64,000 bases of DNA from a virus, in the IMG/VR virus record IMGVR_UViG_3300031857_000027. One strand, written 5' to 3'. The position numbers and the translations under genes were made by a program. Positions 35,851 to 53,406 of the stretch are shown here, piece by piece. Numbering within the stretch: position 1 is the stretch's first letter; the number at the start of each line of letters is the position of its first letter. The notes under the pieces were generated by a model, which was given only the letters and a program-made list of their open reading frames with translations, was not told the DNA's origin and did not search any database.

Positions 35851-38298
35851 CTAAGTCCATTTGAGAATGACTACACCTGAACCACCAGCACCACCGGCAC
35901 CACCAGAATACAGCCATCCGCCGCCTCCACCACCACCGGAGTTGGTATTTGCTGCGGCTGCCGCATTTGTAGCACCAGCACTACCGCCTTGAGAAGCAGT
36001 TCCTCCACTGTTTCCGCTACCACCACCGCCACCACCGGCATATCCAATACTCGAACCAGAAAGTGTTGAAAATAATCCTACACCACCAGTGCCACCGCCT
36101 CCACCAACTGCACCATTCTGTCCTGCTCCTCCTGCACCACCGCCGCCACCGCCAGCATCATTAGCACCATTTCCGCCGCTGTTTCCTTGACCTGGTGTTC
36201 CAGGTGCGCCGGCTATTAGACCTGCCGGTTGTCCAGGATAAGAAGTGCCTCCTCCACCAGAACCACCACTTCTTGCAAATGTGCCACTGCTTGGAGCACC
36301 AGTAGCACCACCACCTCCACCGGTTGCCCACAAACTAGACACTGGTGATGTGCTAAAAACGCCTGAATTTGATCCATTTGTTCCCGCTACTTGTGATGGA
36401 CCACCTCCACCACCACCTCCAACGACAACTGTATAAACTTGTCCCGGAGATACTGCTAAATTTGTGCCTGTAAGAAATCCACCAGCACCACCGCCACCTG
36501 CAACAGAACCTCCACCTCCACCACCGCCAGCGACGATTAGGTATTCAAGACTTGTTGTGCCTGTTGGTACTGTCCATGTTGTGGTGTTAGAGAAAACAGT
36601 AAATTTATTTTGTAAAGCCGATACTCTAATAACAGCAAAACCTGAGCCACCAGCACCACCAGCAGTTCCAGGTTCACCAGTATATCCACCACCACCGCCA
36701 CCACCACCACGATTAGATACAGCAACACCTCCAGTTGCCGCCGATGGAGAATTTACGCCATTTGCACCGCCACAAATAAAATGTCCAAATGGTGTGTTTG
36801 TTGGATTTAAATATGCACCACCGCCACCACCACCGGCATAACCAACATTAGCACCAGTAATTGATGAGAAAATTCCTATGCCACCATTTGAGGATGTTCC
36901 TGACGGGCTGCCAAAGCCAGCACCACCGCCACCACCTCCTCCACCAGAACGATCAGTGCCACCACCAACCGCACTTCCACCGGCACCACCATCGAATCCT
37001 TGACCTGGTGTGCCTCTTCCTCCTGGCGTTGAATTATTTAAACCTCTGCCATTACCACCACCAGAACCACCGGATTGTCCATATCCACTGTCTGTTGCAG
37101 CACCTCCCCCACCACCTATTGCAGTCAAAAGAACAGAAGAAGTTACTGTGTTTCCAGCAGAAAGAACTGTGTTTACTCCATTACTACCGACACCAGGAGC
37201 ACCCGCCGTGCCACCTCCACCAATCTGAATTGTGTAAAGTTGTTCGGGTGCTACTACATAACCTGTACCTTGCAATAAACCGCCAGCACCACCGCCACCA
37301 CCAATACGACCACCACCACCTCCACCTCCAGCAATTAATAGATAGTCAATATTAGTAACGCCGGGGGGTATTACTAATTGACCAGTGTTTGCAAATACAT
37401 ATACACCATTGACACCTGCGGTTTCTGTATAGCGAATGATGATGATGCCGGACCCACCTGCCCCACCTGCCGCTGTGTAAGCTCCGCCGCCACCGCCACC
37501 GCCAGTATTTGCTGTGCCACTTTGCACTGGCGGCGCACCGGGATAATTACCCCCACCATTACCACCACCACCAATACCACCGCCACCTACAGTGCCGTTT
37601 GTGTATACACCTCCACCACCGCCGCCACCATATGCTACATTGGCACCAGATATAGTAGAGTATATTCCCGCACCACCTGCTGCACCAAAAGCACCATTTG
37701 CTTTCCCGTTTTGACCAGTGTTAGCAGCACCACCGCCGCCACCATGACCATAATTTGGTGTACCGCTTACACCAGAACCACCAGCACCTCCATTGTTTCC
37801 TTGTCCTGGAGTACCTAGTCCCCCAGGTGCATTAAAAGCAGGGTCAGAATTTGCGCCACCACCACCAGAGCCACCCGAAAACCCAGGTTGTCCAGCATAT
37901 GGATTGCCATTTCTTGTTCCACCGCCACCACCACCTATCGCTGTTAGTGAACCGAATACTGAGTTGGAGCCGTTGCTTCCGTTTATACCATTATCGGAAC
38001 TGGTAGCGGCAGCACCTCCACCACCTATTGTAATTGTGTATGATTGACCCGGCGTTACAGAAAAACCGATGCCTTGTAAAACTCCACCGGCACCACCGCC
38101 ACCACCAAAAGAACCACCACCTCCACCACCGGCGACTAAAAGATAATCAACAGATGTCACACCCGAAGGTGCTACCCATGTTGTTGCTTGAGTGAATATT
38201 CTTGTGACTGTATATGAAACTATGGCAGCACTAGCAGAGATGCCTCTGCCAAGAATCCCAGGTAAAGAACCAACCGCAAAAGTTGACAACAAAGGCAT
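35851..38298 (-). CDS. Glycine-rich putative adhesin/receptor-binding protein with three tandem polyglycine domains
   Basis: Three copies of F....(W/L)..P.G.T...YL..AGGGGGG...GGSG..(I/V)I. Confidence 0.7.
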   Translation of the reverse strand: MPLLSTFAVGSLPGILGRGISASAAIVSYTVTRIFTQATTWVAPSGVTSVDYLLVAGGGGGGSFGGGGGAGGVLQGIGFSVTPGQSYTITIGGGGAAATSSDNGINGSNGSNSVFGSLTAIGGGGGGTRNGNPYAGQPGFSGGSGGGGANSDPAFNAPGGLGTPGQGNNGGAGGSGVSGTPNYGHGGGGGAANTGQNGKANGAFGAAGGAGIYSTISGANVAYGGGGGGGVYTNGTVGGGGIGGGGNGGGNYPGAPPVQSGTANTGGGGGGGAYTAAGGAGGSGIIIIRYTETAGVNGVYVFANTGQLVIPPGVTNIDYLLIAGGGGGGGRIGGGGGAGGLLQGTGYVVAPEQLYTIQIGGGGTAGAPGVGSNGVNTVLSAGNTVTSSVLLTAIGGGGGAATDSGYGQSGGSGGGNGRGLNNSTPGGRGTPGQGFDGGAGGSAVGGGTDRSGGGGGGGGAGFGSPSGTSSNGGIGIFSSITGANVGYAGGGGGGAYLNPTNTPFGHFICGGANGVNSPSAATGGVAVSNRGGGGGGGGYTGEPGTAGGAGGSGFAVIRVSALQNKFTVFSNTTTWTVPTGTTSLEYLIVAGGGGGGGSVAGGGGAGGFLTGTNLAVSPGQVYTVVVGGGGGGGPSQVAGTNGSNSGVFSTSPVSSLWATGGGGGATGAPSSGTFARSGGSGGGGTSYPGQPAGLIAGAPGTPGQGNSGGNGANDAGGGGGGAGGAGQNGAVGGGGGTGGVGLFSTLSGSSIGYAGGGGGGSGNSGGTASQGGSAGATNAAAAANTNSGGGGGGGWLYSGGAGGAGGSGVVILKWT

Positions 38299-38438
38299 TA
38301 CATTCCACCGAATAAAAACGCATCGTCAAAAATGTCGGGTGGTGAAACGATGTTGTTTGCGCTAACGGCGTTATTTGCAATCAAATTGCCTGTAACTGCA
38401 CGAACTTGTATTATTCCAGTTTCAACTTTTTGTATCAT
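38298..38438 (-). CDS. 46-aa micro-protein MIQKVETGIIQVRAVTGNLIANNAVSANNIVSPPDIFDDAFLFGGM (not in ORF track)
   Basis: Fills the gap; AAGGTG SD upstream; TAATG coupling to the next gene; C-terminal ~31 aa nearly identical to the end of the 51693-52181 protein. Confidence 0.8.
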   Translation of the reverse strand: MIQKVETGIIQVRAVTGNLIANNAVSANNIVSPPDIFDDAFLFGGM

Positions 38439-38446
38439 TTTACACC

Positions 38447-39004
38447 TTAGGGGTTTTGATTTAACGCTCTTTGAAAATTACTATTTGCCGCTAATACTGT
38501 GTAAACATTTGCTGCCGTTTTTAAAATATTAAATGAATATATGTCAATGGATTCTTGTTGTGTAGTAGAAAAACCAGGAGCTGAATTTCCTGCCCACCAA
38601 GGATTTTGTAAAGTACCATCAACATAAACATTGGCACGATATCTCGTTGCACCATGCTTCAATAAAATTGCCGCAGTAATTGTTTGTCCAATAGTCAACT
38701 GTGAATCAAGAGTATTTTGTGTGTTCGCTCTAAAATTAAAAGTTACATTTGCTGTTGTGTTTGAAGAAAAGAAATAAACAGTATTGTTTTCTAAATCAAT
38801 GTTTACATTACCACCAACAGCAACGGAGTATACATTTGCAGATTCAAGAACTTGACTCAAAGATATGTGAAGGTTTGCAGCAAGAGTGTTGCCTGCAATT
38901 TGACCTGCTACAATATTGTTTGCACGAACGGCATTACCTGCAATTTTGTTTCCAATAATTGCACCATCTGCAATACGACCTGATTCTACTTTTTGATCTG
39001 ACAT
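38447..39004 (-). CDS. Fibre-associated protein (pentapeptide-repeat stalk + beta-sandwich head)
   Basis: IADGAIIGNKIAGNAV repeats; paralogue of 39009-39542. Confidence 0.65.
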   Translation of the reverse strand: MSDQKVESGRIADGAIIGNKIAGNAVRANNIVAGQIAGNTLAANLHISLSQVLESANVYSVAVGGNVNIDLENNTVYFFSSNTTANVTFNFRANTQNTLDSQLTIGQTITAAILLKHGATRYRANVYVDGTLQNPWWAGNSAPGFSTTQQESIDIYSFNILKTAANVYTVLAANSNFQRALNQNP

Positions 39005-39008
39005 TTAA

Positions 39009-39542
39009 TTAACCAAATCCATATGATGTTCTTGATCCTAAAACTGAAAACGCATTGGATCCTGTTTTAATTGATGTGAAGGTATAAACATCTAATTGTT
39101 GATTCGTAAGTGATGCTGCATAAGTCGGTCTAGTGTTACCACTCCATCTTGTATTGCCTGATTGATAAACACCATCAATTGCCAAATTGGCCAAGAACTG
39201 TGTGGAGCCTTGTGTCAATATGAATGCTGTAGTAATTGATTGACCGTTTGCCATAAAACTATTTAAAGTAGTTTCTGGACTTACCCGAATATTAAAAGTA
39301 ACATTATCAGCAACATTACTGGTTACATAATAAACTGAATTGTCATCAAGTGATACATTTACATTACCGCTTGTTGAACTTGAAATCAAATTAGCATTTT
39401 CCAATAAACGATTTACTGGAGCAAGTTTTACAGAAGCAATCGTGTTATTAGCAACCAAATTACCCGTAATTGTACCAACGGCTATTTTGGCTCCAGTAAC
39501 CGAAGTATTGGCAAATCTATTAGTGTTTATTCTTTGCGTCAT
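39009..39542 (-). CDS. Fibre-associated protein, paralogue of 38447-39004
   Basis: Shared LE.AN...GNVN..L....VY...NVTFN.R...GQ.IT...W.GN..P...D.Y.F...KT pattern. Confidence 0.65.
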   Translation of the reverse strand: MTQRINTNRFANTSVTGAKIAVGTITGNLVANNTIASVKLAPVNRLLENANLISSSTSGNVNVSLDDNSVYYVTSNVADNVTFNIRVSPETTLNSFMANGQSITTAFILTQGSTQFLANLAIDGVYQSGNTRWSGNTRPTYAASLTNQQLDVYTFTSIKTGSNAFSVLGSRTSYGFG

Positions 39543-39569: not shown

Positions 39570-42500
39570 TTAGCCACCAAATACAATTGACATTGCAATT
39601 GCTTTACCTGTTGTCGCCGCAGACTGAATCGATGTATTAAGTGATGTACTCAATTTTTGTGAAGTTATGCTGCCATCTGGAATAACAAATGCGTTTGCCG
39701 TTGTGTACATAGTGGCAACACGCACCAATTCACCATTAGCAGGAATTTCATCTAATGTAATTGTCTGTAAAGCGGTATTTACAGTATAATCATTTATAGA
39801 CTGGACAATACCGTCAATTGTTACAATAAGTGTTTCACGGGCCTGAGGATTAAATCCTAAGTTAAATGTAGCAGTTGTACCAGTTGATATTGTTTCAAAT
39901 ACAGATACAGAGACATTTGAACTTACATATTGAATATAATAAGGATTAATTTTTTCAAAGCCAACAATTCGAATGTTTTCATTATTACCTGGCGCAGTGA
40001 CAAATGTAACTGTGTTTGTTGATGGAGTTACGGTATACGCAGTTTCGGGTTGTAAAATACCACCAATAGAAACAAAAATGGCTTTGTTTGATTCCGGTCT
40101 AAATCCAATACTAAATGCTTGAGTTGAACCATCACCAACAGCACTGTATGTTGATACTACAGCACCAGCAGAATTCGCAATGTCTAAGAAATAAGGTACT
40201 ACATTATTAAATCCTGCCACACGAATGGATTGACCAGCAGGTGGAGGTTCATTAAATGAAATGGAATTATTTGAACGAGTTACAATATAATCCACAAGTT
40301 CAGTTTGAACAATACCACCAATTGAAACAATCACCGCACTGTTAGATGCAGGTGTAAATCCTAAAGCGTAAGTAGAAACAGCACCATTTGATGTTGTGTT
40401 AAATGTTGTGACTTCAGCATTAGCACCCGTATTTGCTTTGTCAAATGCAGCATTTGCTTGAATAAAGGCAGCATTTGCTTGACCACGAACCCAAGGATCG
40501 GATGCATTATTCGCCGCATTGAATGCCGCATTCGCATGAACATATGATGAATTGGCGTGAATGAAACCACTGTTGGCATGATTAAACGCCGACTGTGCAT
40601 GAAGAATACCAGCATTTGCTTGTATAAACGCAGAATTTGCAGTGTTAAATGCTGGTTGTACTTGTGGTGCTACATTATTTGCTGAAGCAAACGCCGCATT
40701 CGCATGGTCAAATGCTGCATTGGCCTGTGACGAAGTTGCATTCGCTACAATGAATGATGCATTCGCTTGATTGTATGATGCATTCGCTTGAATGAATCCA
40801 CTATTTGCATGGAAGAATGCAGAGTTTGCCTGCACAAATCCAGAATTTGCATGATCAAAACCAGCATTCGCTTGAATCGTCGTAGCATTCGCAACGATAA
40901 ATGCCGCATTTGCACGGTTACTTGCCGTTACTGCTTTATCGTCAGCAGTGTTAGCAGCATCAAATCCAGCATTTGCGTGATGAAAGGCTGACTGTGCATG
41001 AAGTATGCCAGCATTGGCTTGTATGAATGCTGCATTGGCGGTATGAAACGCCGGCTGAACTTGCGGTGCTACATTATTAGCAGCAGCAAACGCAGCATTC
41101 GCATGGGCGTATGCACCATTAGCGTATACACCAGCAGACGAAGCATTTGCATCAGCGTTGTTTGCTGTGATAAATGACGCATTGGCTTGAATGAATGCCG
41201 CATTGGCGGTATTAAACGCCGGTTGTACCTGTGGTGCTACATTGTTTGCAGAAGCAAATGCAGCGTTGGCGTGTACAAACGCAGAGTTAGCATATGATCC
41301 GGCAGATAGTGCATTTTGATCGGCCGTATTTGCTTTATCAAACGATGCATTAGCATGTATAAATGCTGAGTTGGCAGTATCGTATGCGGGCTGTACTTGC
41401 GGGAATACATTGTTTGCCGCCGCAAAGGCTGCATTGGCATGGTCAAACGATGCATTAGCCTGAATAAATGCTGAATTGCCCGTGTTGAACGCCGCATTAG
41501 CAGAAGCGAATGCACCATTAGCATTGGCAAAAGCGGCATTGGCCATCGCAAGACCAGCATTTGCATTTGCAAAAGCAGCGTTGGCATAATTACCAGTTGA
41601 GTTTTGACTTACGTAAGCAGCATTGGCATGATCAAAGGCTGAGTTGACATGAATGTAACCACTGTTAGCATGTATAAATGCCGCATTTGCATATTGACCA
41701 GTCGCATTCTGTGACTGATATGCTGCGTTGGCATGACCGAATGCGGAGTTGGTATGAATAAATGCGCCGTTGGCTACAGTAAACGCAGCATTAGCGTATT
41801 GACCTGTAGCATTCTGTGACTGATATGCAGAGTTCGCATGTATAAATGCCGCATTGGCATATTGACCAGTTGCATTTTGCGATAGATAAGCCGCATTCGC
41901 ATGAACATACGATGAGTTTGCCTGAATGAATCCGGAGTTTGCATGTTTAAAACTTGCAGTTGCTAAGTTCTCTGCAATGTTCGCTGTCGCAAATCCCGCT
42001 TTAGCGTGTTCATTTGTACTGTTTGCAAGATTCGCACCAATAGGATAAAACTCTTTTTCGTATGCTTCAAACGTGTCATATACTGCCCAACTGTTCGCAG
42101 TTTTATTTGCAAGAATAATATGGCCGGGTTCACCCGATCCTTCATATGCTAACCATTCATTAACAGTTTCATCCCAAAGAATATATGCGTTTGGTGATGA
42201 ACCACGATTGACAATGATTGCGGCATTGAGTGTTGGTGTACCAGTAACATTGGCACTCAGAATTACATTGTTACCACCAACAAACAATTGGTCCGTAGTA
42301 ATTGTTTGAGCATTACTAATTACAAGATTGCCTGTGATAGTCAGATTACCTGTGAACAAACCATCACCAGCAACGTGTAGGTTTGCTTGTGGGCTGTCTG
42401 TATCAATGCCTAAACGGTCGTTGGCATAATCCCAATACAGTTTAGTTGGGTCTTGATCAATTGCACCATTACGACCAAACAGAATAGCACCATTTGTTTT

Positions 42501-45362
42501 ATTCTTGCCTTCCATCAAATGTGAATAGACGAGAATTGAACCGTCTGTTACGTCTGACAGAGTAACATAACCAACTGCCATTGGTATACTTGGCGGCACT
42601 GGAGGAGTTGTTTGATATTCACCCGGCGTATCTGACAAGAACAACTCTTGTCCAGCAGCCAATAATGAAGTGTTAAGTCCTCTGATTTTACCATGTATCG
42701 TTACATAACCATAATCATTATTTGCAATTGCAGTTGAAGTAACACCAACAACTTCTGCATTTGCAGCAATGTCAGCAGAAGCAAGTGCAACAGCAGGGAA
42801 GCCATTTGCTGATGCATCACCACCTATACGGGCAACTTTGCCTCTGTCAATCGTGGTACCAGAATTGTTCCATACACGAATTACTGTTTCTTGACCAAGT
42901 TGAATCGTGTTATCAGATTCGTTGTTGTATGCTAAAGTTTTTTGATCATTGTCGTAAAAAATACGACCTTCATTTCTTGGTGGTACAGAAGATGATGTGT
43001 TTAGATCAATATACGAACCAACAAATACATTTTGTGTAGTTAGATTAGCATCAATTACAACATTAGCGGTAACTGTACCACCAAGATTTGCGTCTAATGA
43101 ATTGTTAGCACGAATGAATGCTGAGTTTGAAGTATCTCTTGCAACATTATCAATACCATAGCCAATGAATGCTGTGAATTGTTTTGTAGAATCCGGAAAT
43201 CTTATCTGGCCATCTGTACCAAAGTCCCATGTATTGCTTGTAGTTCCAGTGGTTTGAATATGTGCGCCACCCGGATCAACCCACATAACCGATTCGTCGG
43301 CAAAATTCATTCTTACATAACCAGCGCCACCGTTATTGTTATATAAATCAATACCATTCGGGAAACCACTTCTACCGATATCTCCACGTGATGCTGGTAA
43401 TGTTATTGTACCATCTTGAGTGAACGTGAAACTTCTTGTTGGTGAATCAAAAAGACCTTGATTCGTCTGAATAAGAACGCTAGTTTTACCATACAGCACT
43501 GCTTGACTAGCATTATCCAAATATATTCCAGTATTACCACTTTGTGCATTTGCTGTTATTGATAATACTCCATCACCCTGATTGGTAATTCTTCCTTTGG
43601 AAGGTCCGAATATTAAAGTGCCGGGAAGAGCAAATGCACCATTTGAATGTAATTGAGCAGTGAAGCCACTATTAACTAAGTTTGCTTTGTCAGTATTTGC
43701 TTGATTGTACGCAGCATTTGCCCAAATGAATGCAGCATTAGCATACTGACCAGTTGCATTCTGTGAGATGTATGCCGCATTGGCGTGATCAAAAGCGGCA
43801 TTCGTTTTTATAAATGCACTGTTAGCCTGAATGTATGCGGCGTTAGCAGCAGCAAAAGCACCGTTAGCGTTTGCAAAGGCAGCATTGGCTCTAGCAAAAG
43901 CACCATTGGCATTTGCGAAAGCATATGATGTGTAGACATACAGGTCTACTGTACCGTTTGCACCAAAGAAATAATTTGAGAAGATAGCATTAGCACCTGT
44001 AATGCTACCATTTGAACCCGTTGTTGTTAAAGTATTTGATGTAAGATTACCAACAATGACAACATCACCAGTAACTTGACCACCAACGTTTGCATTGAGT
44101 GAATTGTTTGCACGAATAAATCCTGCATTTGCATGATTGAATGCGGCGTTGGACTGAATGAATCCTGAGTTTGCTTGAATATATGCAGCATTAGCAGCAG
44201 CAAAAGCACCATTGGCATTTGCAAATGCGGCATTGGCTCTAGCAAAGGCACCGTTGGCATTTGCAAAAGCAGCATTCGCATGATCAAACGCTGAGTTTGT
44301 TTTTATGAAGCCGCTATTTGCATGGATGAATGCTGCATTTGTCTGTATGAATGCTGAGTTTGCTTGAATATAAGCAGCATTAGCAGCAGCAAATGCGCCG
44401 TTAGCATTTGCGAAAGCAGCATTCGCATGATGATACGCAGAGTTTGCTTGAATAAACCCGCTATTTGCGTAACTACCTGATGCATTCTGAAACTGAAACG
44501 CAGAGTTTGCATGAATAAATGCTGCGTTGGCTTGTTCAAATGCAGAGTTCGCACGAATACCACTTGTGTTCTGACTTGTGTATGCAGCATTCGCATGTAA
44601 GTATGCGGCATTTACATGAAAGAATGATGAATTAGCTTGAATGAATCCTGAGTTAGCATGAATATATGCCGCATTGGCCATTGCAAGACCAGCATTTGCA
44701 TTTGCAAACGAATAGTTAGCATGAAAGAATGCTGAGTTGGCTTGAATGAAACCACTATTCGCATGATCAAACGAATAATTAGCATGTAAAAATGCGGAAT
44801 TTGCTTTTACAAACGCAGAGTTGGCGTATGATGCTGGTGCCGAACCACCCAAGTCATCGTATGATATACCATCATTTGTGAACTGCCATTTATTGTCTGT
44901 TTCATTCCATAACAAATAAACGTTTGCTTCCACACCACGATCAATTTCAATACCCGCATTCATAGTCGGTGTACCCGACTGACTGATAGCAGCATTCAAT
45001 GTGATGATGTTATCACCAATCAATACGATTGGTACATTGGCGCCAATTGAACCGCCAATGATATTCAGATTACCTACAATAGTTAGATTACCAGTAATCG
45101 TGCCACCAGTATTTGCATTTACGGTATTATTTGCACGAAGAGATGTCGCATTAACAGAATTGAATACAGTATTTAATCTATCATATGCAGAAATGCCACG
45201 AATATAAGAATCGAAACCACCAATGATGATAGGACCGTCACCAGCTGGTGAACCAATGAATAATGTATTACTGCTATATGAATACGCTGGCTCACCAATG
45301 TTAAGTGTTGCTGGTGTGTTCGTGACAAGTGAACGCTTTATTTGTATTGTTGTATTTGCCAT
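39570..45362 (-). CDS. Long tail fibre-like protein with ~115 A-N-x-A-F-x-x heptads
   Basis: N-terminal IQIKRS...GEPAY (Mtd-N-like), AGIEIDRG domains, heptad blocks, three C-terminal (N/D/T)G....(F/Y).(L/I)G domains, and terminal GKAIAMSIVFGG. Confidence 0.75.
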   Translation of the reverse strand: MANTTIQIKRSLVTNTPATLNIGEPAYSYSSNTLFIGSPAGDGPIIIGGFDSYIRGISAYDRLNTVFNSVNATSLRANNTVNANTGGTITGNLTIVGNLNIIGGSIGANVPIVLIGDNIITLNAAISQSGTPTMNAGIEIDRGVEANVYLLWNETDNKWQFTNDGISYDDLGGSAPASYANSAFVKANSAFLHANYSFDHANSGFIQANSAFFHANYSFANANAGLAMANAAYIHANSGFIQANSSFFHVNAAYLHANAAYTSQNTSGIRANSAFEQANAAFIHANSAFQFQNASGSYANSGFIQANSAYHHANAAFANANGAFAAANAAYIQANSAFIQTNAAFIHANSGFIKTNSAFDHANAAFANANGAFARANAAFANANGAFAAANAAYIQANSGFIQSNAAFNHANAGFIRANNSLNANVGGQVTGDVVIVGNLTSNTLTTTGSNGSITGANAIFSNYFFGANGTVDLYVYTSYAFANANGAFARANAAFANANGAFAAANAAYIQANSAFIKTNAAFDHANAAYISQNATGQYANAAFIWANAAYNQANTDKANLVNSGFTAQLHSNGAFALPGTLIFGPSKGRITNQGDGVLSITANAQSGNTGIYLDNASQAVLYGKTSVLIQTNQGLFDSPTRSFTFTQDGTITLPASRGDIGRSGFPNGIDLYNNNGGAGYVRMNFADESVMWVDPGGAHIQTTGTTSNTWDFGTDGQIRFPDSTKQFTAFIGYGIDNVARDTSNSAFIRANNSLDANLGGTVTANVVIDANLTTQNVFVGSYIDLNTSSSVPPRNEGRIFYDNDQKTLAYNNESDNTIQLGQETVIRVWNNSGTTIDRGKVARIGGDASANGFPAVALASADIAANAEVVGVTSTAIANNDYGYVTIHGKIRGLNTSLLAAGQELFLSDTPGEYQTTPPVPPSIPMAVGYVTLSDVTDGSILVYSHLMEGKNKTNGAILFGRNGAIDQDPTKLYWDYANDRLGIDTDSPQANLHVAGDGLFTGNLTITGNLVISNAQTITTDQLFVGGNNVILSANVTGTPTLNAAIIVNRGSSPNAYILWDETVNEWLAYEGSGEPGHIILANKTANSWAVYDTFEAYEKEFYPIGANLANSTNEHAKAGFATANIAENLATASFKHANSGFIQANSSYVHANAAYLSQNATGQYANAAFIHANSAYQSQNATGQYANAAFTVANGAFIHTNSAFGHANAAYQSQNATGQYANAAFIHANSGYIHVNSAFDHANAAYVSQNSTGNYANAAFANANAGLAMANAAFANANGAFASANAAFNTGNSAFIQANASFDHANAAFAAANNVFPQVQPAYDTANSAFIHANASFDKANTADQNALSAGSYANSAFVHANAAFASANNVAPQVQPAFNTANAAFIQANASFITANNADANASSAGVYANGAYAHANAAFAAANNVAPQVQPAFHTANAAFIQANAGILHAQSAFHHANAGFDAANTADDKAVTASNRANAAFIVANATTIQANAGFDHANSGFVQANSAFFHANSGFIQANASYNQANASFIVANATSSQANAAFDHANAAFASANNVAPQVQPAFNTANSAFIQANAGILHAQSAFNHANSGFIHANSSYVHANAAFNAANNASDPWVRGQANAAFIQANAAFDKANTGANAEVTTFNTTSNGAVSTYALGFTPASNSAVIVSIGGIVQTELVDYIVTRSNNSISFNEPPPAGQSIRVAGFNNVVPYFLDIANSAGAVVSTYSAVGDGSTQAFSIGFRPESNKAIFVSIGGILQPETAYTVTPSTNTVTFVTAPGNNENIRIVGFEKINPYYIQYVSSNVSVSVFETISTGTTATFNLGFNPQARETLIVTIDGIVQSINDYTVNTALQTITLDEIPANGELVRVATMYTTANAFVIPDGSITSQKLSTSLNTSIQSAATTGKAIAMSIVFGG
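40430..44826 (-). repeat. 21-bp/heptad coding repeats in three blocks (~44826-44095, ~43925-43690, ~41960-40430)
   Basis: Recurrent ANAAFIH/ANSGFIQ/QNATGQY/ANNVAPQVQPAF units; boundaries approximate. Confidence 0.85.
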
Positions 45363-45371
45363 TTGTAATTC

Positions 45372-45593
45372 TTAGAATAGTCCACCGTCAATATCTGCAA
45401 TCGCAGTGACAGCAATTTTCGTTTCATATCGATTGTTTGCCGAACTATAGACTAAAGAAAATCCATCTTGCACACCATCTGTTGACACATCATTAATTTC
45501 CGCCAGTGTAACATTAGGTTTTGGTTTGTAATTCGGTGATACAAGTGTTGTTCTATTTGGTTGAAAAACCGTAACTTTACCTAAATCTGGCAT
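45372..45593 (-). CDS. Small fibre-associated protein ending in DGGLF
   Basis: L.EINDV...DG..LVY motif and C-terminal DIDGGLF. Confidence 0.65.
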   Translation of the reverse strand: MPDLGKVTVFQPNRTTLVSPNYKPKPNVTLAEINDVSTDGVQDGFSLVYSSANNRYETKIAVTAIADIDGGLF

Positions 45594-45596: not shown

Positions 45597-45932
45597 TTAC
45601 CTCGTAACTGATGGAAGTACAACAGCAGTGCCTTCTACTACACGTGTCACGGAGTTATCAACAGAGTTTCTGATAATCAAGTCATACACATATCGGCCTG
45701 GCGTTAAATTTGCTGTGTTTGCAGCGGTCATCGATAACGTGATTTGACCGTTCGCATTTCCAGTAATGATTGCGGAAAGTGTATTTGCTGATGAAGAATA
45801 ATATGATTTGCGTAATTGAGCCGATGCAGAATATGTTGTAAGATTTACGGAGTCACCTTGTGTATCATTTACTGTGACAGTTGATGTGAGGTTTGCACCT
45901 TGCTCAATGGTAATTTCTACGTATGCCGCCAA
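45597..45932 (-). CDS. Conserved Ig-like virion protein (TTG start)
   Basis: ITIEQGA..., NLT.YSA.AQLRK, GRYVYD and RVVEG...V.PSVTR; AGGAG SD. Confidence 0.75.
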   Translation of the reverse strand: MAAYVEITIEQGANLTSTVTVNDTQGDSVNLTTYSASAQLRKSYYSSSANTLSAIITGNANGQITLSMTAANTANLTPGRYVYDLIIRNSVDNSVTRVVEGTAVVLPSVTR

Positions 45933-46027: not shown

Positions 46028-46417
46028 TTACGCAGGTTGTGGTTCAACTTCTTTCCATGAAACTGTTTCTTCATCCCATGTATACATCTTCTTACCCTCA
46101 CCCATGCCGGCATCCGAAGGCATAGCTACAGGTGCTTCCCAATTTACATCTTCATTGTTCAACACCCATGAAGCATACGGTTTTGGTGGAACGAACGCAT
46201 CCAATTCTGCATTGTATGTATAACCGACACCTGCATAACGCTTGCGGAAGTTATGATTGTATGATGTCTGCTTCCAATTGCCACCAAACAATCTTTGACA
46301 GAAACCAATACCTAATTCTTCACGCTCAACGCCATTAGCGTCAAGTAATTCATTGTTGGACACAACAATGACTTGAGTTACAACATTGTTTTCATCAAGT
46401 TGTGCAAAATGTGCCAT
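46028..46417 (-). CDS. Conserved fibre-associated protein (MAHFA family)
   Basis: MAHFAQLD.NN.V..VIVV, WKQTSYN..FRK.YAG.GY.Y and F.PPKPY.SW; follows a Gly-rich gene. Confidence 0.7.
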   Translation of the reverse strand: MAHFAQLDENNVVTQVIVVSNNELLDANGVEREELGIGFCQRLFGGNWKQTSYNHNFRKRYAGVGYTYNAELDAFVPPKPYASWVLNNEDVNWEAPVAMPSDAGMGEGKKMYTWDEETVSWKEVEPQPA

Positions 46418-46465: not shown

Positions 46466-49111
46466 TTATGTCCATTTGATAATGACAACACCTGAACCAC
46501 CACTTCCTGTCGATTCTCCAGTTGGATTATTACCACCACCACCGCCACCACCAGTGTTATTATTCGCACTTGTAGCATTTATGACTGTTGGACTGTATGG
46601 ATAACCGCCCTGTTTTTGACCAGCACCAGCACCAAAAGGAGTTCCGACTAATACACCATATGGAGCATAACCTCCACCGCCGGCTTGAACGCCTTGTGGA
46701 TATGCACCTCCACCACCACCAGCATATGCAGTATTAGCACCAGAAATTGATGAGAATAGACCGACTGCACCATTGGCGCCAGACCAAGTGGGTACGCTTC
46801 CTGCGCCACCGCCACCACCTCCTAATCTATCCGCACCAGACGGTGAAAATAAACCATTGGAGCCACCACCACCTTCGGCAGGTGAATATCCACCAGCATT
46901 TCCTGGACCACCAGAACCACCTGAATTACCACTGCCGCCACCTCCAGATCCACCGGAACTACCATTAACGTTAGTGGGTCCAGAACTACCTCCAGCCGGT
47001 CCTCCTGCTCCACCCGTACCACCACCTGACGACCAAATAGCAGGAAATGGTGATGATGACCAAATTCCTGAATTCGAACCATTTGCACCAGTAACACCAT
47101 ATGAAGTGGTACCGGCACCACCTGCACCAACAACAATTACGTGAGATGCACCAGGTGTTACAGAAGTGCCTGAACCTGTTCTAAAACCACCAGCACCACC
47201 ACCTCCAGCCGCATAGCCACCAGCACCAGCACCACCACCAGCAACCACAAGATAATCAATACTAGTTACACCATCCGGCACACTCCATGTAGTGGTGTTA
47301 GAAAAGATTGCAACTTTGTTTTGTATTGCTGAGATTTTGATGACAGCAAAACCTGAGGCGCCTGATCCTCCAGAAGAAGACCAACTTGGACCTGCACCGC
47401 CGCCGCCGCCACCGCCGCCGGTTGAATTATTGGCATTTCGACCAGTAGCACCAGAAGAAGGTCCACCAAGTCCATTACCTGCGCCATATGGTGTTCCTAA
47501 CCAAGGTGCGCCCGAAGAGTATAATGCGTAGCCTGCACCACCAAAAGACATAAAGCCATCATAAGAACCACCACCACCGCCGCCAGCATATGCAACATTA
47601 GAACCTGATAATGATGAAAATATTCCTATACCACCATTACCACCAGATGGTGCAGTACCAGATTGTCCTACACCGCCAGCGCCACCACCACCACCAGTGC
47701 CGTAATTGCCAAAACCAGCGTAACTATCACCACCGTTAAAACCTTGTCCCGGTGTGCCTCGGCCGGATGGACCAATCGGTGATCCGGGAGATACTTGACC
47801 ACCGCCACCAGAGCCACCAGAATTTCCCCATGTTGCAACTCCAGGCGATTGACCACCGCCACCACCTCCACCTATTGCAATTAAAATCTCAGCATTTGCC
47901 GTATTGCCAGCGGATAAAACAGTGCTTGTTCCATTAGAACCTTTAACACTAGCTGGCGACCCAGGACCACCAACTCCACCACTACCAATTCGAATTGTAT
48001 AGATTTGATTAGGTCCTACTGCATAACCTGTGCCTTGTAGAACACCACCAGCACCACCGCCACCACCGGAACCACCGCCACCGCCGCCACCGCCCGCAAC
48101 TAAAAAATAATCAATTGTGGTGACACCATTAGGTATTATAAATTGACTTGTGTTTGCGAAAACGAATGTTTGATTTGAAATTTCACCATATCTCCATTTA
48201 AGAATAACAACACCTGAACCACCGGAACCACCGGTAGCAGGTGCGGGCGAACCACCATATCCACCCCCACCGCCTCCACCACCTGTAGAATTATTGCCCG
48301 AAACACCAGGATTTATACTGAGAGCATGAATCCCACCATTACCACCTCCAGTTGTGTTAGCACCTGAACCACTATTACTTCCACCTCCACCGCCAGCATA
48401 TCCTGTATTAGCACCTGTGATTGTTGAAAATATTCCGACACCACCTCTACCACCACCACTACCACCGCCGATGGTGCCAGGCGAACCACCTCCTGCGGCG
48501 CCGGCGCCACCACCACCACCGTAAGGGGCTCCACCATTATTACCTTGTCCAGGCGTTCCTAATCCACCCACTGGGCTTGACCCAGCACCGCCACCAGAAC
48601 CACCAGATCGATTGCCGGCCCCAAGAAACCCACCACCACCGCCAATAGCCCAAGATACTATTGTATTTCCCGTAGCAGTATTAAAAATCCCCGAATTCGA
48701 ACCATTACTACCACTGGTGCCACCAACACCTCCCGCACCACCAGCACCAACGACAACTGTATATTGTGCAGTCGGAGTTACTGATATATTTGGACTTGCA
48801 AGATAACCACCAGCACCACCGCCACCACCCCAATCGACAGCCGGCTGATACCCACTACCACCGCCACCACCACCGACAACAAGATACTCAACACTTGTTA
48901 CACCTATAGGCACAGTCCAAGTTGAACTTTCTGAGAATATTTGAACACCATTAAAAATTCCAGACGGCACTTCCTCTGGCCATATACCAGCAAGTCTTGC
49001 TATTTGTGCTTCACTTAAAGACCAAATTCCTGTGGCGGTACCTTGCCCAATACCACCACCAGTGGTTAGGTTTCGTGTGCCAATAATTCCGCCATTAAAT
49101 CCCTTAGCCAT
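46466..49111 (-). CDS. Glycine-rich putative adhesin with three polyglycine domains; paralogue of 35851-38298
   Basis: Same three-repeat layout; N-terminal NGGIIG...ATGIWSLSE segment. Confidence 0.7.
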   Translation of the reverse strand: MAKGFNGGIIGTRNLTTGGGIGQGTATGIWSLSEAQIARLAGIWPEEVPSGIFNGVQIFSESSTWTVPIGVTSVEYLVVGGGGGGSGYQPAVDWGGGGGAGGYLASPNISVTPTAQYTVVVGAGGAGGVGGTSGSNGSNSGIFNTATGNTIVSWAIGGGGGFLGAGNRSGGSGGGAGSSPVGGLGTPGQGNNGGAPYGGGGGAGAAGGGSPGTIGGGSGGGRGGVGIFSTITGANTGYAGGGGGSNSGSGANTTGGGNGGIHALSINPGVSGNNSTGGGGGGGGYGGSPAPATGGSGGSGVVILKWRYGEISNQTFVFANTSQFIIPNGVTTIDYFLVAGGGGGGGGSGGGGGAGGVLQGTGYAVGPNQIYTIRIGSGGVGGPGSPASVKGSNGTSTVLSAGNTANAEILIAIGGGGGGGQSPGVATWGNSGGSGGGGQVSPGSPIGPSGRGTPGQGFNGGDSYAGFGNYGTGGGGGAGGVGQSGTAPSGGNGGIGIFSSLSGSNVAYAGGGGGGSYDGFMSFGGAGYALYSSGAPWLGTPYGAGNGLGGPSSGATGRNANNSTGGGGGGGGAGPSWSSSGGSGASGFAVIKISAIQNKVAIFSNTTTWSVPDGVTSIDYLVVAGGGAGAGGYAAGGGGAGGFRTGSGTSVTPGASHVIVVGAGGAGTTSYGVTGANGSNSGIWSSSPFPAIWSSGGGTGGAGGPAGGSSGPTNVNGSSGGSGGGGSGNSGGSGGPGNAGGYSPAEGGGGSNGLFSPSGADRLGGGGGGAGSVPTWSGANGAVGLFSSISGANTAYAGGGGGAYPQGVQAGGGGYAPYGVLVGTPFGAGAGQKQGGYPYSPTVINATSANNNTGGGGGGGNNPTGESTGSGGSGVVIIKWT

Positions 49112-49494
49112 TAACTAATTTCCTCAAACGATGAGATAAAGTGTAAACGATTATTTGCATCAGCCCTGACTCTGATGTTATCACCTTCTTCCAAGTAAAG
49201 TGATTTTGACAGAATATCAAGTGATGATTTGGCAGGTACAGTAACTACATTTGCAATTGCATAAACTGAGTTGCCAACACCTGTGCTTGTGTTTTGTGCG
49301 CCAAATTTAAACAGTTCAACCGATACGTTACCAGAATTGGATCCGTCAACATTAGACACAATCAGTGTATTAACCTTAAACACTTTATTTGAGTTGACAG
49401 GATTAACAATCACTGACGATGAAACTGTCGTAACGTTGGCGACGTTACTTTTACCTCTGATATCTGTTACGCTAACAATGTTTGGCGCTGCCAT
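49111..49494 (-). CDS. Small beta-sandwich adaptor protein (MAAPNIV type)
   Basis: MAAPNIV...K(V)NTLIVSNVDG...VPAKSSL...LYLEEGD...SFEEIS. Confidence 0.7.
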   Translation of the reverse strand: MAAPNIVSVTDIRGKSNVANVTTVSSSVIVNPVNSNKVFKVNTLIVSNVDGSNSGNVSVELFKFGAQNTSTGVGNSVYAIANVVTVPAKSSLDILSKSLYLEEGDNIRVRADANNRLHFISSFEEIS

Positions 49495-49497
49495 TTA

Positions 49498-49950
49498 TTA
49501 ACCTCCGAATATGATCGAACTTACAATGCCCGAACTTGAAATTTTTAAATTTGCTTCCGCTGAAAAATTATTTGATGAAATTGCATTTGTTGTAATCAAA
49601 TTTCCAGTAATTTGACCAGCAACAATATTATTCGCACGAATAGCATTTACTGCCATCTTTGTGCCAGTAACCGAACCATCAGATGGAACTTGAGTTGATG
49701 AGCCAGCACCTAAATGATGAATAACAATGTTATTTACTCCCGTGGCAGGCGCAGAAGTAAAAATAATTAAATCACCGTTTAATATATAATCAACATTGGG
49801 TACTTTATACAAACCACCAATGAAAACTGCAATTGCAGCAACTCCAGCCGGGGCTCTAATCAACGGTCCAAAAGTTGTAGTTGCATCATCACCACTGTAG
49901 ATATTAACTACATGTGGTACTGAAGTTACTTGATTGCCAATATATGACAT
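49498..49950 (-). CDS. Fibre linker protein (MSYIGN type)
   Basis: MSYIGN start, GD..TTTF domain, PSDGSVT pentapeptides, terminal SSIIFGG. Confidence 0.7.
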   Translation of the reverse strand: MSYIGNQVTSVPHVVNIYSGDDATTTFGPLIRAPAGVAAIAVFIGGLYKVPNVDYILNGDLIIFTSAPATGVNNIVIHHLGAGSSTQVPSDGSVTGTKMAVNAIRANNIVAGQITGNLITTNAISSNNFSAEANLKISSSGIVSSIIFGG

Positions 49951-49961
49951 TTAATTTCCTA

Positions 49962-50381
49962 TTATTCGTATGTCGGTCTTACTGGTGGTTCACCTGCTGG
50001 TGTGGGAAACTTGTCATTGATTTCTTTGATTGACTCATAGAACTTTGTTCCCTTGCCTGGAATTTCACTGTTATCCATTGCTTCCCATAAATTGTTTACT
50101 ATAGTTACAATATCAGGATAGTTTGCAGCACGATCAATAAAGTGCTGCCAGTATTCAATAAACTTATTCTGATATTCCAATTCTTTAAAAATCTCTTCTT
50201 TAGTTGGTGGTTTTGTTCCCGCCTCGTCTTCCCATCTTGTAAACTCAAAATGACCACCAGATGCAGACATATCATATCTTGCACTTGGTCTGAGTGCTTT
50301 AATTGCAGTGTCAATACCACATACAAGTTTGTTGTTGTTTCCTACCAAATATTGTGCATAAGAAATTTGTTCGTTATTCAT
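49962..50381 (-). CDS. Putative tail fibre assembly protein (XkdW-like)
   Basis: AIKALRP.A, W.....KPPTKEEI, R...YP and I..K(F)P pattern. Confidence 0.5.
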   Translation of the reverse strand: MNNEQISYAQYLVGNNNKLVCGIDTAIKALRPSARYDMSASGGHFEFTRWEDEAGTKPPTKEEIFKELEYQNKFIEYWQHFIDRAANYPDIVTIVNNLWEAMDNSEIPGKGTKFYESIKEINDKFPTPAGEPPVRPTYE

Positions 50382-50409
50382 TCAATCACCTCTAATTAAA
50401 TAAAAGTAT

Positions 50410-51327
50410 TTATTGTAAAAAAGTTATAGTACCAGAGCCAGTAAATTGATATAACCAAGATGAGCCTAAGTTAGTTTCGGTTGCGCTACCTGTCGTGCTT
50501 GATGCCCTAATTACACTTTTAAATATAACAACTCCACTTGCTCCAGATAATACTGTAGGACCCACAATACCACCATCGCAACCACCAGCACCGCCACCAC
50601 GATTTGCTAACGGTGCTGATGCATTTGCAGCACCACCTGGAGCATTTTGAGTTCCGGCTCCACCACTACCGATACCAGCACCCCCTGCTCCATATGTAAG
50701 AGATGAACCTGTAATTGCGCTAGATATTCCCACTCCACCAGCACCACCAACATAACTAGGAAAACCACCTGCACCACCCGCACCACCCGCACCACCTCCA
50801 CCACCAGAAGCAGAAGCAGAAGATGGATTGGCAGAGCCGCCTCCACCATTATTACCTAATGGCGGATAGCCTGCTGCACCCGTAGCAAAAACACCATTCC
50901 ATTGTGGTTGTGCGTAACCACCGCCACCCGAACCACCAGGCAGTGCTGATCTTAAAGATCCGTTACCAATTTGGACTGGATATCCAAAAAATGCCCCACG
51001 ACCACCACCATCACAAACAACATTTGACCAAACAGCCGGATTATTAAATGTAATTGAAGAGTTTGAACCGGATGATGAACCTGAACCACCACCACCAACT
51101 GTTACTTGAAGCACTGCTCCAACAGCAGGAAAGGCTAAACCTGTTCTTAAACCACCACCGCCACCACCGCCACCTTGTGCATAGATGTTTTGACCAGACC
51201 CATCATAACTTCCACCACCACCTGCTAAAACGAGATATTCAATAAAAGACGGTTGAGTAATACCCAAAGAAGGACCCGTCATTCTTCTAAGTGTTACTCT
51301 ATTTGCGGTGATTCTATTTAAAGCCAT
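50410..51327 (-). CDS. Glycine-rich putative adhesin, single domain
   Basis: IEYLVLAGGGG...GASGVVI...YQFTGSGTITF. Confidence 0.7.
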   Translation of the reverse strand: MALNRITANRVTLRRMTGPSLGITQPSFIEYLVLAGGGGSYDGSGQNIYAQGGGGGGGGLRTGLAFPAVGAVLQVTVGGGGSGSSSGSNSSITFNNPAVWSNVVCDGGGRGAFFGYPVQIGNGSLRSALPGGSGGGGYAQPQWNGVFATGAAGYPPLGNNGGGGSANPSSASASGGGGGAGGAGGAGGFPSYVGGAGGVGISSAITGSSLTYGAGGAGIGSGGAGTQNAPGGAANASAPLANRGGGAGGCDGGIVGPTVLSGASGVVIFKSVIRASSTTGSATETNLGSSWLYQFTGSGTITFLQ

Positions 51328-51339
51328 TCAAAACTCCAG

Positions 51340-51678
51340 TTAATAAATCTCTGTACCAAAAGCCGAAAAACTCATTAATGAACTATTTGCATTTACCGAA
51401 ATGTTTGAACCAGCATTCATTGTAATGCCAAGTGTTAGTGTAATTGAATCTCTGGCGGGGCAATTCACACGGTATGCAATATAGTTTGTGTTAGAAACTG
51501 CAACACCAGAAACATTCACAGCAATGCTAAATGAGTTTCCAACACCATCGGATTCATTTAAATTAGCAATTGTAATTGATGAGATAATTGCGGAATTACC
51601 AACAGGAACCCGATAAAGATTTGTCAACGTATTGGCTGTTGGATTTGACTGCCCTAAAATTCTATATGATCTTGCCAT
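51340..51678 (-). CDS. Small beta-sandwich adaptor protein (MARSYRILGQ type)
   Basis: Y.ILGQ.NP.A...T.LY.VP, SSITIAN, LTLGIT and FSAFGTEI. Confidence 0.7.
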   Translation of the reverse strand: MARSYRILGQSNPTANTLTNLYRVPVGNSAIISSITIANLNESDGVGNSFSIAVNVSGVAVSNTNYIAYRVNCPARDSITLTLGITMNAGSNISVNANSSLMSFSAFGTEIY

Positions 51679-51692
51679 TTGTTATTTTCCTT

Positions 51693-52181
51693 TTACATTC
51701 CACCAAACAAAAATGCATCATCAAAAATGTCTGGTGGGGACACAATGTTGTTACCACTAACCGCATTGTTTGCTATTAAATTACCAGTAATTTGAGTCAC
51801 TCCAATTTTATTACCTAAAACAGCACCATCTGCGATTTTTGTTGTTGTGACTGCGCTAGTAGCAATTGCGGTTTCAGTTACAGCGCCAGGTAAAATTTGT
51901 GATGCTGAAATTTGATTATATGTAATTGCTACTGGTGCAAGATATCTGACAGTAATATTGTTAGTGCCAAGAGATGGTGCCTCATCAAATGTCATTAAAC
52001 CATTCGTCACAGTGTAAGATGTTGTTGGTGTTTGAATGACACCATTTACAACAACTTCAATATCATTGGCACTATCAATGTCTCTTGTTAAAGTAAATTG
52101 AGTGCAAGCACCTGTACCGTTAAAACTATCAACGGTTATTGTAAAAGCATTTACTTCAGGTTCGTTGCCAATGTATGACAT
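51693..52181 (-). CDS. Fibre linker protein (MSYIGN type)
   Basis: MSYIGNEP start, FNGTG..TQFTL domain, pentapeptide repeats, terminal DDAFLFGGM. Confidence 0.7.
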   Translation of the reverse strand: MSYIGNEPEVNAFTITVDSFNGTGACTQFTLTRDIDSANDIEVVVNGVIQTPTTSYTVTNGLMTFDEAPSLGTNNITVRYLAPVAITYNQISASQILPGAVTETAIATSAVTTTKIADGAVLGNKIGVTQITGNLIANNAVSGNNIVSPPDIFDDAFLFGGM

Positions 52182-52516
52182 TAGGAAATCTCCAGAACTG
52201 AAGCAATGACATCAGCGGAAGATGCTACAGATGTATTTACTGCTAAGTAATCTCCTGCTTCCAACACAAGTTTTTGATCGCCACCAATAGGTACTAATGC
52301 ACCACCGGGAGCAATCGTAGCACTCTGAACCAAATACACGTTCGGTGCGGCAGCACCAGCGCAGGTTAAAATAACGTTTGCAGCGATTGGTGAACTTGTA
52401 ATGTTAGCGATTGTCATACCGATAACTGTGGCTTGCACACCAGCAGCAGCCGCATATACGTTCTGAGCAGTCGTTCCTGCCGCTTTGAGAACACTGTTTT
52501 TAAAATTGTTAGCCAT
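52181..52516 (-). CDS. Small beta-sandwich adaptor protein (MANNFKN type)
   Basis: MAN.FKN, TVIGMTIAN, KLVLEAGD and SVLEIS. Confidence 0.7.
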   Translation of the reverse strand: MANNFKNSVLKAAGTTAQNVYAAAAGVQATVIGMTIANITSSPIAANVILTCAGAAAPNVYLVQSATIAPGGALVPIGGDQKLVLEAGDYLAVNTSVASSADVIASVLEIS

Positions 52517-52545
52517 TAAATCCTCTGTTTTTCTTCAGTATTTAT

Positions 52546-53406
52546 TTAACCTAAGGCAATCGCAAATGCAATTGATGAGTCAATTGCTGCTGAAATTGTG
52601 CCATAAATTGCAGTATTTGCTTGACCCACCAAGAGTGTAATGTTACCTGTGCTTGTATTTAAGTTTGCTGCATTAACAGAACCAGCAACACTTAAATCAT
52701 CAAATCCAAGTGAGTCTAAAGTAACGTTACCAGATATTGATAGATTACCATAAATGAATGCATCACCACCGACCGCCAGATTGCTTGTGATATTTACACT
52801 TGCGGCATTACCCGTGAGTATTAATCCACTTGTGACGTTCAGTGTGGAGATATTCGCCAATGGCGCAACGATGCTACTACCAACATTCAGTGTCGTTGTA
52901 ACATTTGCCCTTGTAATATTACCAGATATAGTTACATTTGAAGCAAACGTATTTCCAACAACAACTAAAGTTTGAGCAATATTTGCATTACCTGCCACAG
53001 CCAAATCATTAAAACCAATGGCATCTAAAGTCGTATTACCTGAAATGGTCAGATTACCGTGTAAGAATGTATCACCACCAACAAACAATCTATTAGTAAC
53101 ATTAACCGAAGTTATGTTTGCGATTACGTTAGCATTTCTACCAATCGTTATATCTCTAGGTACCGTAACATCATTGTCTAAGAAAAGAACATTAGCAAGA
53201 TTTGCGGTGTTTGCTCTTAGTGTATTAATGTTTGCTAATGTGCGAACATTCAGAGAAGCAGCAGAACCTTCGATAAAAATCGAAGAGTTCATCACAAAAC
53301 CACCGCCCGTATTATCGGTCAGATTATTTGCAACCGCAACAAGAGTAGATGTTGTGGTTAGCCACTCTTCAAAAGTATTGGCTGTTGAAAGTTGATCTAT
53401 TGCCAT
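52546..53406 (-). CDS. Asn-rich short fibre / beta-helix protein
   Basis: N-terminal NTFEEW...T, repeated GNLTISGN units, terminal IAFAIALG. Confidence 0.65.
   Translation of the reverse strand: MAIDQLSTANTFEEWLTTTSTLVAVANNLTDNTGGGFVMNSSIFIEGSAASLNVRTLANINTLRANTANLANVLFLDNDVTVPRDITIGRNANVIANITSVNVTNRLFVGGDTFLHGNLTISGNTTLDAIGFNDLAVAGNANIAQTLVVVGNTFASNVTISGNITRANVTTTLNVGSSIVAPLANISTLNVTSGLILTGNAASVNITSNLAVGGDAFIYGNLSISGNVTLDSLGFDDLSVAGSVNAANLNTSTGNITLLVGQANTAIYGTISAAIDSSIAFAIALG

Follow-up and report, generated by a model that had tools for sequence, protein, structure and literature searches.

We analysed a window of 64,000 nucleotides (nt) of the virus record IMGVR_UViG_3300031857_000027, and focus here on a series of genes, named A to S in the order of transcription, that includes three small putative adaptors (D, F and J) placed between fibre stalks and glycine-rich heads. 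The window derives from a T4-like marine myophage, whose large terminase (TerL) shares about 54% identity with the enzymes of Synechococcus phage S-PM2 and Pelagibacter phage Mosig, while a Megablast search of the module against 50,697 phage records gave zero matches at the nucleotide level. All genes of the window lie on the minus strand. The module is flanked on one side by a baseplate wedge gene (phrog_438) and the gene of a 2093-amino-acid (aa) DUF4815 protein, and on the other by neck genes, terminase and sheath, and is therefore taken to be a fibre module.

At three places a stalk protein with a short hydrophobic, Gly-ended tail is directly followed by an adaptor gene, as the original prediction, made from the sequence alone, had stated. 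The 286-aa repeat stalk C (52546..53406), which has a weak bactofilin-like repeat match, ends in ..SSIAFAIALG (tail class T1) and precedes adaptor D (52181..52516, MANNFKN...VLEIS). The 162-aa linker E (51693..52181) is composed of an MSYIGN N-terminus, an immunoglobulin-like (Ig-like) domain and a repeat stalk; it ends in ..FDDAFLFGGM (T2) and precedes adaptor F (51340..51678, MARSYRILGQ...FGTEIY). The 150-aa linker I (49498..49950), with an MSYIGN N-terminus, an Ig-like domain and a stalk, ends in ..VSSIIFGG (T3) and precedes adaptor J (49111..49494, MAAPNIV...SFEEIS). Both linkers match the tail fiber family phrog_18673 (E at 2.8e-10, I at 1.5e-7), and E has in addition a weak, sub-threshold match to DUF4183 (E 9e-4).

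The gene after each adaptor was expected to encode either an MSYIGN linker or a Gly-rich protein, and this is the case for D followed by E, F followed by G and J followed by K; the second MSYIGN protein, I, departs from the rule, as it follows gene H and not an adaptor. G (50410..51327, MALNRI...) is a 305-aa Gly-rich head that matches PF21722 (E 1e-12, 48.9 bits) and phrog_2295, and K (46466..49111, MAKGFNGGII...) is an 881-aa head with three Gly-rich domains (PF21722, E 8e-48, 163.8 bits over three stretches). A further head of 815 aa with three Gly-rich domains, S (35851..38298, MPLLSTF...; PF21722, E 7.5e-69, 232.6 bits over three stretches), has no adaptor in front. All three heads score above the PF21722 (Gly_rich_2) gathering score of 24.3 bits.

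The homology proposed between the three adaptors is borne out by profile matching, as all match the family phrog_1276 over positions ~1-111 (D at E 1.4e-8, F at E 1e-5, J at E 3.6e-4). They are ~110-127 aa long, their pairwise identity is 19-24%, and as judged by these profiles they are true paralogues. phrog_1276 is a PHROG family without assigned function. No named model of Pfam, NCBIfam or Atlas matched D, F or J, and their PHROG matches are families without function, plus a weak partial match of F to phrog_693 ('tail fiber protein').

An AlphaFold2 model of F, built with 92 homologues, has a predicted local distance difference test (pLDDT) score of 89.8 and displays an eight-strand beta-sandwich. 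The PDB fold matches of this model have Z scores of 9.8-8.0, with 92-107 residues aligned at 2.4-3.4 Å; they are small oligomeric jelly rolls, among them HDT1, NLP, nucleoplasmin-like cores, Ena appendage subunits, the HFTV1 turret and the cement protein of KHP40, a trimer. From the model we confidently assign a single jelly-roll fold to the adaptor; no match stands out, and no superfamily was assigned. Among predicted viral structures, about 120 proteins match at E ≤1e-3, and most are uncharacterised. The annotated ones are 'virion (structural) protein' in S-SCSM1 and MaMV-DC, and domains of 'tail fiber-like' proteins in S-CAM1 and P-SSM2. No solved structure related by sequence was found for the adaptor profile, G or E.

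A profile of 92 members was searched against 1.84 billion representatives and retrieved 10,310 clusters (50% identity) at E ≤1e-3, 2,804 of them at E ≤1e-10. Members are mostly 108-112 aa long, with many tandem doubles of 215-240 aa, and are carried by pelagiphages, cyanophages, phages of freshwater and marine bacteria, and one actinobacterial phage. Tandem genes or fused doubles and triples (215-330 aa) occur for instance at L089:5078-5763, at L091:5339-5680 and in P0006, and account for about 40 of the top 150 members.

The original prediction could be examined across genomes by asking which tail class precedes which adaptor class. The sample consisted of 191 viral contigs with adaptor homologues, found with D, F and J each used singly as query, and of the neighbouring genes within 4 kb on either side; in all, the pairing was compared over 270 viral contigs and several cultured phages. 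Three tail classes were defined: T1 (..AFAIALG), T2 (..FLFGGM, FLLSGM or FLLMGA) and T3 (..AIAMAIVFG(G) or IIFGG). A hydrophobic Gly-ended tail is found upstream of 170 of the 208 unique adaptors that have an upstream open reading frame (ORF); in the background, about 18% of ORFs have such a tail. The upstream tail is ..A[FY][AS]IALG for 60 of 64 D-type adaptors, one of the three T2 tails for 52 of 78 F-type adaptors, and a T3 tail for 48 of 62 J-type adaptors; a single cross-class pair occurs among the unique adaptors with an upstream ORF. In a non-redundant set of 92 dissimilar adaptors, the outcome is strongly positive, as 60 of the 61 tailed pairs are cognate (18, 25 and 17 on the diagonal, one off it; chi-square 116, p ~5e-24, a value that ignores shared ancestry). 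Viewed from the tail side at the same adaptor-centred loci, the next gene is the cognate adaptor for 52 of 53 T1, 30 of 34 T2 and 40 of 43 T3 tails. Moreover, tail and adaptor covary inside the F type: FGTE[IV]Y adaptors occur only with FLFGGM, while the tails found with FGSE adaptors are LMGA or LLSGM, and those found with FGVELT adaptors AMGS or FTGS. These data make cognate tail-adaptor joints very likely, at the level of sequence.

As a check independent of the adaptors, a tail-centred scan was run with the last 60 residues of O, a 1930-aa fibre described below. Of 48 unique proteins ending in ..GKAIAMSIVFG(G), 32 stand directly before a MAAPNIV adaptor; these stalks range from 49 to 873 aa and are highly diverse at the N-terminus. 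The remaining 16 proteins are fibres resembling O, and the next protein starts with M[TPSV][QE][QRK][IV]..R[IL], as in P, Q and R of the window. The Q(K/R)(V/I) N-terminal peptide, to which the original prediction had drawn attention, is thus a conserved alternative partner of the T3 tail. Single-linkage BLAST clustering of the stalk bodies merged almost all of them through shared low-complexity repeats.

A recurring N-terminal peptide after the adaptors had also been proposed, and it holds for the D type, where 62 of the 68 following genes start with M[SA]Y[IL]GN. The presence of two MSYIGN proteins for one D adaptor is conserved across relatives, and alternative heads on equivalent sockets or a branch would fit this arrangement equally well. 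A fourth type of junction has no adaptor: a small protein ends in ..(I/L)DGG(L/S/T)F or ..INAGAF, and the next gene encodes a fibre with the N-terminus MAxTxIQIKRS. In the window, this junction is formed by N (45372..45593, 73 aa, ending ..DIDGGLF) and O, in the order that had been noted at the outset. It is also found in Mosig (L002; gp69 ending ..TINAGAF, gp68 starting MATVIQIKRS) and in the related contigs L129 and G001, and Mosig gp68 itself ends in ..TTIDGGSF.

The same cassette is present in distant phages. In the Pontimonas siphophage phiPsal1, an 86-aa protein ending in ..LDNALMLMGG is followed by an adaptor (MASSYKILGQ), a 298-aa Gly-rich ORF and a homologue of gene L. This Gly-rich ORF (L001:5349-6245; MG835450.1 15857-16753) was missed in the deposited annotation, in which phiPsal1_022 and 023, implausible Val/Leu-rich ORFs in other frames, were annotated over its DNA. 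In Pelagibacter phage HTVC033P, the cassette is made of gp66 (..GKAIAMAIVFG), the adaptor gp65 and gp64 (MANGGIIG, 34% Gly). In the myophage Mosig, it is made of gp66 (..ALAYSIVFGG), the D-like adaptor gp65 and gp64. The Mosig gp66 tail is a hybrid of T1 and T3, two classes that have A-[IL]-A-x-[AS]-I-x-[LF]-G in common; an ..EIS ending is likewise common to the adaptors of the D and J types. It looks as if the T1/D and T3/J combinations had diverged from a single pair.

Natural fusions were found by an exhaustive profile search of the family, and they attach the adaptor domain covalently to stalks as well as to heads, with the parts arranged as they are in the separate genes. On the stalk side, an MSYIGN stalk is joined to an F-like adaptor domain through ..GLAVSLLG-TAIT-GYKILGQ in L091 and L109, and P0135 contains a ..FDDAFQFA segment, a linker and an adaptor in one chain. 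On the head side, P0069 carries an adaptor and a Gly_rich_2 head with a Laminin_G_3 insert, P0141 an adaptor and an IPT/TIG domain, and P0015 two adaptor domains, a collagen triple helix and a C-terminal domain. The collagen fusion places the adaptor domain in a trimeric context. Two longer fused forms from a word-based search were set aside, as they look like chimeric assemblies.

J-type pairs usually lie in the same frame, with 1-2 stop or sense codons in between, as they do at 34 loci. At the I/J junction of the window (49494-49503), the sequence GGA GGT TAA TAA ATG runs in one frame, and GGAGGT is a Shine-Dalgarno sequence 7 nt before the start of J. Such in-frame pairs of T3-tail genes and J adaptors suggest gene fission. 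The read-through I~J fusion was folded by AlphaFold2 as a monomer, with 53 naturally in-frame pairs as paired rows; in this model, the J domain has a pLDDT of 93-98 and the Ig-like domain of I is confident. Actual fusion by stop-codon read-through was rejected, given the double TAA and the D-type and many F-type pairs that are out of frame.

Conservation was assessed in five related contigs. Identity to the window is 69-97% for the adaptors, 48-76% for the stalks E and I, and 41-61% for the heads K and S, the exception being one partial match of K (86% over 32% of the protein). D in particular is 69-97% identical in relatives, above its neighbours. The last eight residues of the tails are more identical than the whole proteins (0.76 vs 0.53 for C-like stalks, 0.51 vs 0.36 and 0.40 vs 0.28 for the others), as is the MSYIGN N-terminus (0.65 vs 0.43 overall). 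In these sequences, the pattern is the one expected of joints and not of receptor-binding tips.

Two tails that adjoin no adaptor had been reported, and both are present. One is the T3 tail ..GKAIAMSIVFGG (..AMSIVFGG) at the end of O (39570..45362), a 1930-aa fibre with a MANTTIQIKRS N-terminus, Ala/Asn repeats and three Ig-like domains, located 27 nt before P. The other is the T2 tail ..DDAFLFGGM of R (38298..38438), a 46-aa protein with an MIQKV N-terminus. Genes P (39009..39542, 177 aa, an MTQRI N-terminal repeat segment and a C-terminal domain; phrog_5906, E 1e-17) and Q (38447..39004, its 185-aa paralogue, MSDQKV...; phrog_5906, E 6e-22) stand between the two, and the three consecutive starts MTQRI, MSDQKV and MIQKV are as described in the original prediction. 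R and E are identical at 30 of their last 31 residues, and their codons differ by 16 synonymous and 1 non-synonymous changes; the orphan tail of R is, on these codon counts, under strong purifying selection. In the relative G001, the gene of an R homologue (106 aa, ..YFLFGLGS) stands before that of an F-type adaptor, and a Gly-rich head comes next. In G001 and in L129, the closest relative, the J adaptor comes after a tailless Gly-rich gene. The G001 homologue of O, several kilobases away from the J adaptor, keeps its T3 tail, while the L129 contig ends before that point. These arrangements would fit one adaptor copy serving non-adjacent tails.

The remaining genes complete the module. A (53632..59913), which comes after the baseplate wedge gene, encodes the 2093-aa baseplate-associated giant protein (DUF4815, E 6e-63; phrog_358, E 0), and is the first gene of the conserved block A-B-C-D-E, whose order is common to the window, L091 and L109. 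B (53408..53629) encodes 73 aa and matches phrog_473 ('virion structural protein', E 3.5e-19); its homologues are kept between those of A and C in L091/L109. H (49962..50381), located between G and I, encodes 139 aa starting with MNNEQISYAQYL..., matches phrog_20715, 9114 and 1787, families without known function, and is 82-89% conserved in relatives; in contigs L063 and L064, it comes directly after an F-type adaptor. L (46028..46417, 129 aa; phrog_7759, a family without known function, E 1e-48) comes after the Gly-rich heads in the window and likewise in phiPsal1 (L001:6245-6625), L109:7628-8014 and other contigs; it might assist the assembly of these heads specifically, or be a partner distal to them. 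M (45597..45932, 111 aa) matches phrog_1084 (without known function) and phrog_3304 ('L-shaped tail fiber protein assembly') and is a homologue of Mosig gp70.

The Gly-rich genes have a local GC content of 0.48-0.52, compared with about 0.38 elsewhere, and a GC skew down to -0.31. Long Pro-rich ORFs run antisense to them on the plus strand (36464-36841, 46773-47144 and others) and were rejected as genes, since they are mirror images of GGN codon runs. Outside the module, a 144-aa Dps/ferritin-like gene (32139-32573) lies between the small and large terminase genes.

We propose that D, F and J are single jelly-roll connector modules in modular tail fibres, and give this reading a probability of roughly 0.6. 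Each adaptor class would recognise one tail class, D binding ..AFAIALG, F binding ..FLFGGM and J binding ..IVFGG or IIFGG. The recognised tail would sit on the preceding, presumably trimeric, stalk, and the other face of the adaptor would carry the next segment or a receptor-binding head. Fibres could in this way be put together without covalent bonds, from stalks, joints and heads that can be exchanged, following the order of the genes: from A-B-C through D to E or I, from E through F to G, and from I through J to K. The orphan tails of O and R may use the single cognate adaptor of the genome in trans, or may join MTQRI-type N-termini directly. The proposal is based on homology, fold, class-specific pairing, natural fusions and conservation, from which we infer binding, trimeric stoichiometry and the assignment of the faces.

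The original prediction went further, in that triads of tail, adaptor and N-terminal peptide were to act as orthogonal connectors assembling several heads combinatorially on a branched tree. Its tail-adaptor half agrees with the cognate classes and with the fusions to stalks and to heads; an N-terminal code of general validity does not emerge. Branching and combinatorial assembly would be further steps that we infer at most, and the data fit branching no better than they fit linear fibres of several segments, or equivalent sockets that take alternative heads.

A different role in the same position has to be considered. The adaptors could be tail-fibre assembly chaperones, similar to Tfa or gp38, that help stalks to trimerise and link nothing. 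Their genes stand directly downstream of fibre genes, which is the classic place of a chaperone, specificity for a tail class suits a chaperone and its client equally well, and C-terminal fusions such as those of L091/L109 would then be intramolecular chaperones. The explanation is nevertheless unlikely. The adaptor domain is also found N-terminal to heads and to a collagen-like fibre (P0069, P0141 and P0015), MSYIGN proteins are almost always next after D-type adaptors, relatives are annotated as virion proteins, and D, F and J match no chaperone family of Pfam, NCBIfam or PHROG (Caudo_TAP/Tfa, gp38 or gp57-type). The same N-terminal fusions to heads speak against another possibility, namely that the adaptors are small lectin-like receptor-binding knobs capping the stalks non-covalently, and that the downstream Gly-rich proteins are independent fibres. 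In favour of such knobs, the fold resembles CBM32, CBM35, CBM62, F-lectin and TNF-family knobs at Z ~7, one homologue is annotated 'putative lectin', and the stalk-adaptor fusions look like a fibre with its knob. However, receptor-binding tips are normally the most variable parts of a fibre, whereas the adaptors are the most conserved genes of the module, and one adaptor class serves very different stalks and heads; we regard the knob explanation as quite improbable.

It could also be argued that there is no specific interaction at all. The tails would then be generic trimer-terminating motifs, the pairing would reflect three old cassettes inherited as blocks, and the Gly codons would in part be ribosome-binding sites. 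The three classes are indeed three clades, with few independent events, the Gly-Gly codons GGAGGT form the Shine-Dalgarno sequence at the I/J junction, and the 34 in-frame J-type pairs point to gene fission. This view has some merit, yet it leaves unexplained the orphan tails of O and R, which keep their motif far from any adaptor, the covariation inside the F type and the fusions on both sides of the adaptor. Tails are moreover retained at junctions whose intergenic gap contains a separate ribosome-binding site, and they are borne by stalks of many N-termini and lengths, so that mere linkage strikes us as very unlikely as the full explanation. Two further explanations of the tails were discarded. 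They have only 6-8 hydrophobic residues and belong to virion fibre proteins, and were rejected as membrane anchors; a covalent, ubiquitin-like linkage through a C-terminal Gly was rejected given the variety of tail ends (G, GG, GGM, GA, GS, GKK).

Several observations weigh against jelly-roll connectors as we describe them. Shared ancestry inflates the statistics of pairing, and so does close physical linkage, since the codons of the tail lie right against the adaptor gene. Between 20 and 30% of the F- and J-type adaptors follow a tailless Gly-rich gene. The proteins encoded after F- and J-type adaptors show no extra conservation of their N-termini (0.28 for the first eight residues vs 0.31 overall), and the head S has another N-terminus (MPLLSTF) and no adaptor, as is the case for similar 'MP(L/I)xxxF' Gly-rich proteins. 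The monomeric I~J fusion model leaves the tail and 10 N-terminal residues at a pLDDT <50, and the 'virion protein' labels of the relatives are annotations. Finally, tandem and double adaptors are frequent, and the simple model leaves them unexplained; they might form stacked rings or pseudo-hexamers.

Fibres made of several parts and connected by small joint proteins have known precedents in T4 gp35/gp36 and in gp10-like anchors. The T4 long tail fibre (gp34-gp35-gp36-gp37) is made of separate products placed end to end, with a small joint protein and with genes in structural order. The connectors proposed here resemble it in their multi-part fibre, small joint protein and gene order mirroring the order of assembly. 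They differ in that at least three joints, each with its own specificity, come from a single family of jelly-roll paralogues, and in that this family is spread over myophages, siphophages and pelagiphages such as HTVC033P. D, F and J gave no match to gp35 or gp36 in PHROG or Pfam. The gp10-like anchor and branch complexes (CBA120, G7C, phiKp24 and Klebsiella phages; the SP6/K1-5 adaptor) are similar in that several receptor-binding proteins share one point of attachment, and heads are exchangeable via conserved docking modules. Those systems dock the N-terminal domains of tailspikes onto gp10-like or adaptor domains, whereas here a C-terminal tail of 6-10 residues would meet a free jelly roll of ~110 aa. 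No gp10-like domain was found among the sequence matches of the module or among the adaptor fold matches listed, the stalks being covered by sequence only. In T2 and S16, gp38 is a separately encoded glycine-rich adhesin that caps the C-terminus of the trimeric gp37 fibre; it attaches by its own N-terminal domain, whereas here a separate jelly-roll protein would be intercalated. A small single jelly roll also seats the end of a trimeric fibre in PRD1/PR772, where the P31 penton holds the spike P5, and in adenovirus, where the penton base holds the fibre tail. PR772 P31 is among the adaptor fold matches (Z 6.7). These are, however, pentameric proteins of capsid vertices and not tail-fibre joints, and the fold similarity is weak and generic.

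Our literature searches found no description of the adaptor family (a baseplate paper on Douge was checked and proved irrelevant), and a jelly-roll connector family with a readable tail code is apparently undescribed. To our knowledge, receptor-binding complexes with several parts and with branches have been described only in a few systems of enterobacterial phages. A broader proposal can be put forward, tentatively and with somewhat less than even odds: tailed phages may use the phrog_1276 jelly rolls almost universally for orthogonal docking, the specificities, three or more in number, having co-evolved with the tail peptides. Any stalk with the correct tail of 8-10 residues could then take any head that is fused to the matching adaptor or comes after it, and the use of one adaptor copy by several tails in trans would give virions with mixed or branched sets of heads.

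The family brought to light here comprises more than 10,000 clusters, is unnamed, and follows a simple sequence rule, in which the class of the tail matches the class of the adaptor. Cultured carriers (HTVC033P, Mosig, Melnitz and phiPsal1) are available for structural work. If the rule reflects binding, it would provide a testable set of orthogonal peptide-domain pairs, explain how receptor-binding heads are shuffled in marine phages, and make fibre architecture readable from metagenomic sequence.

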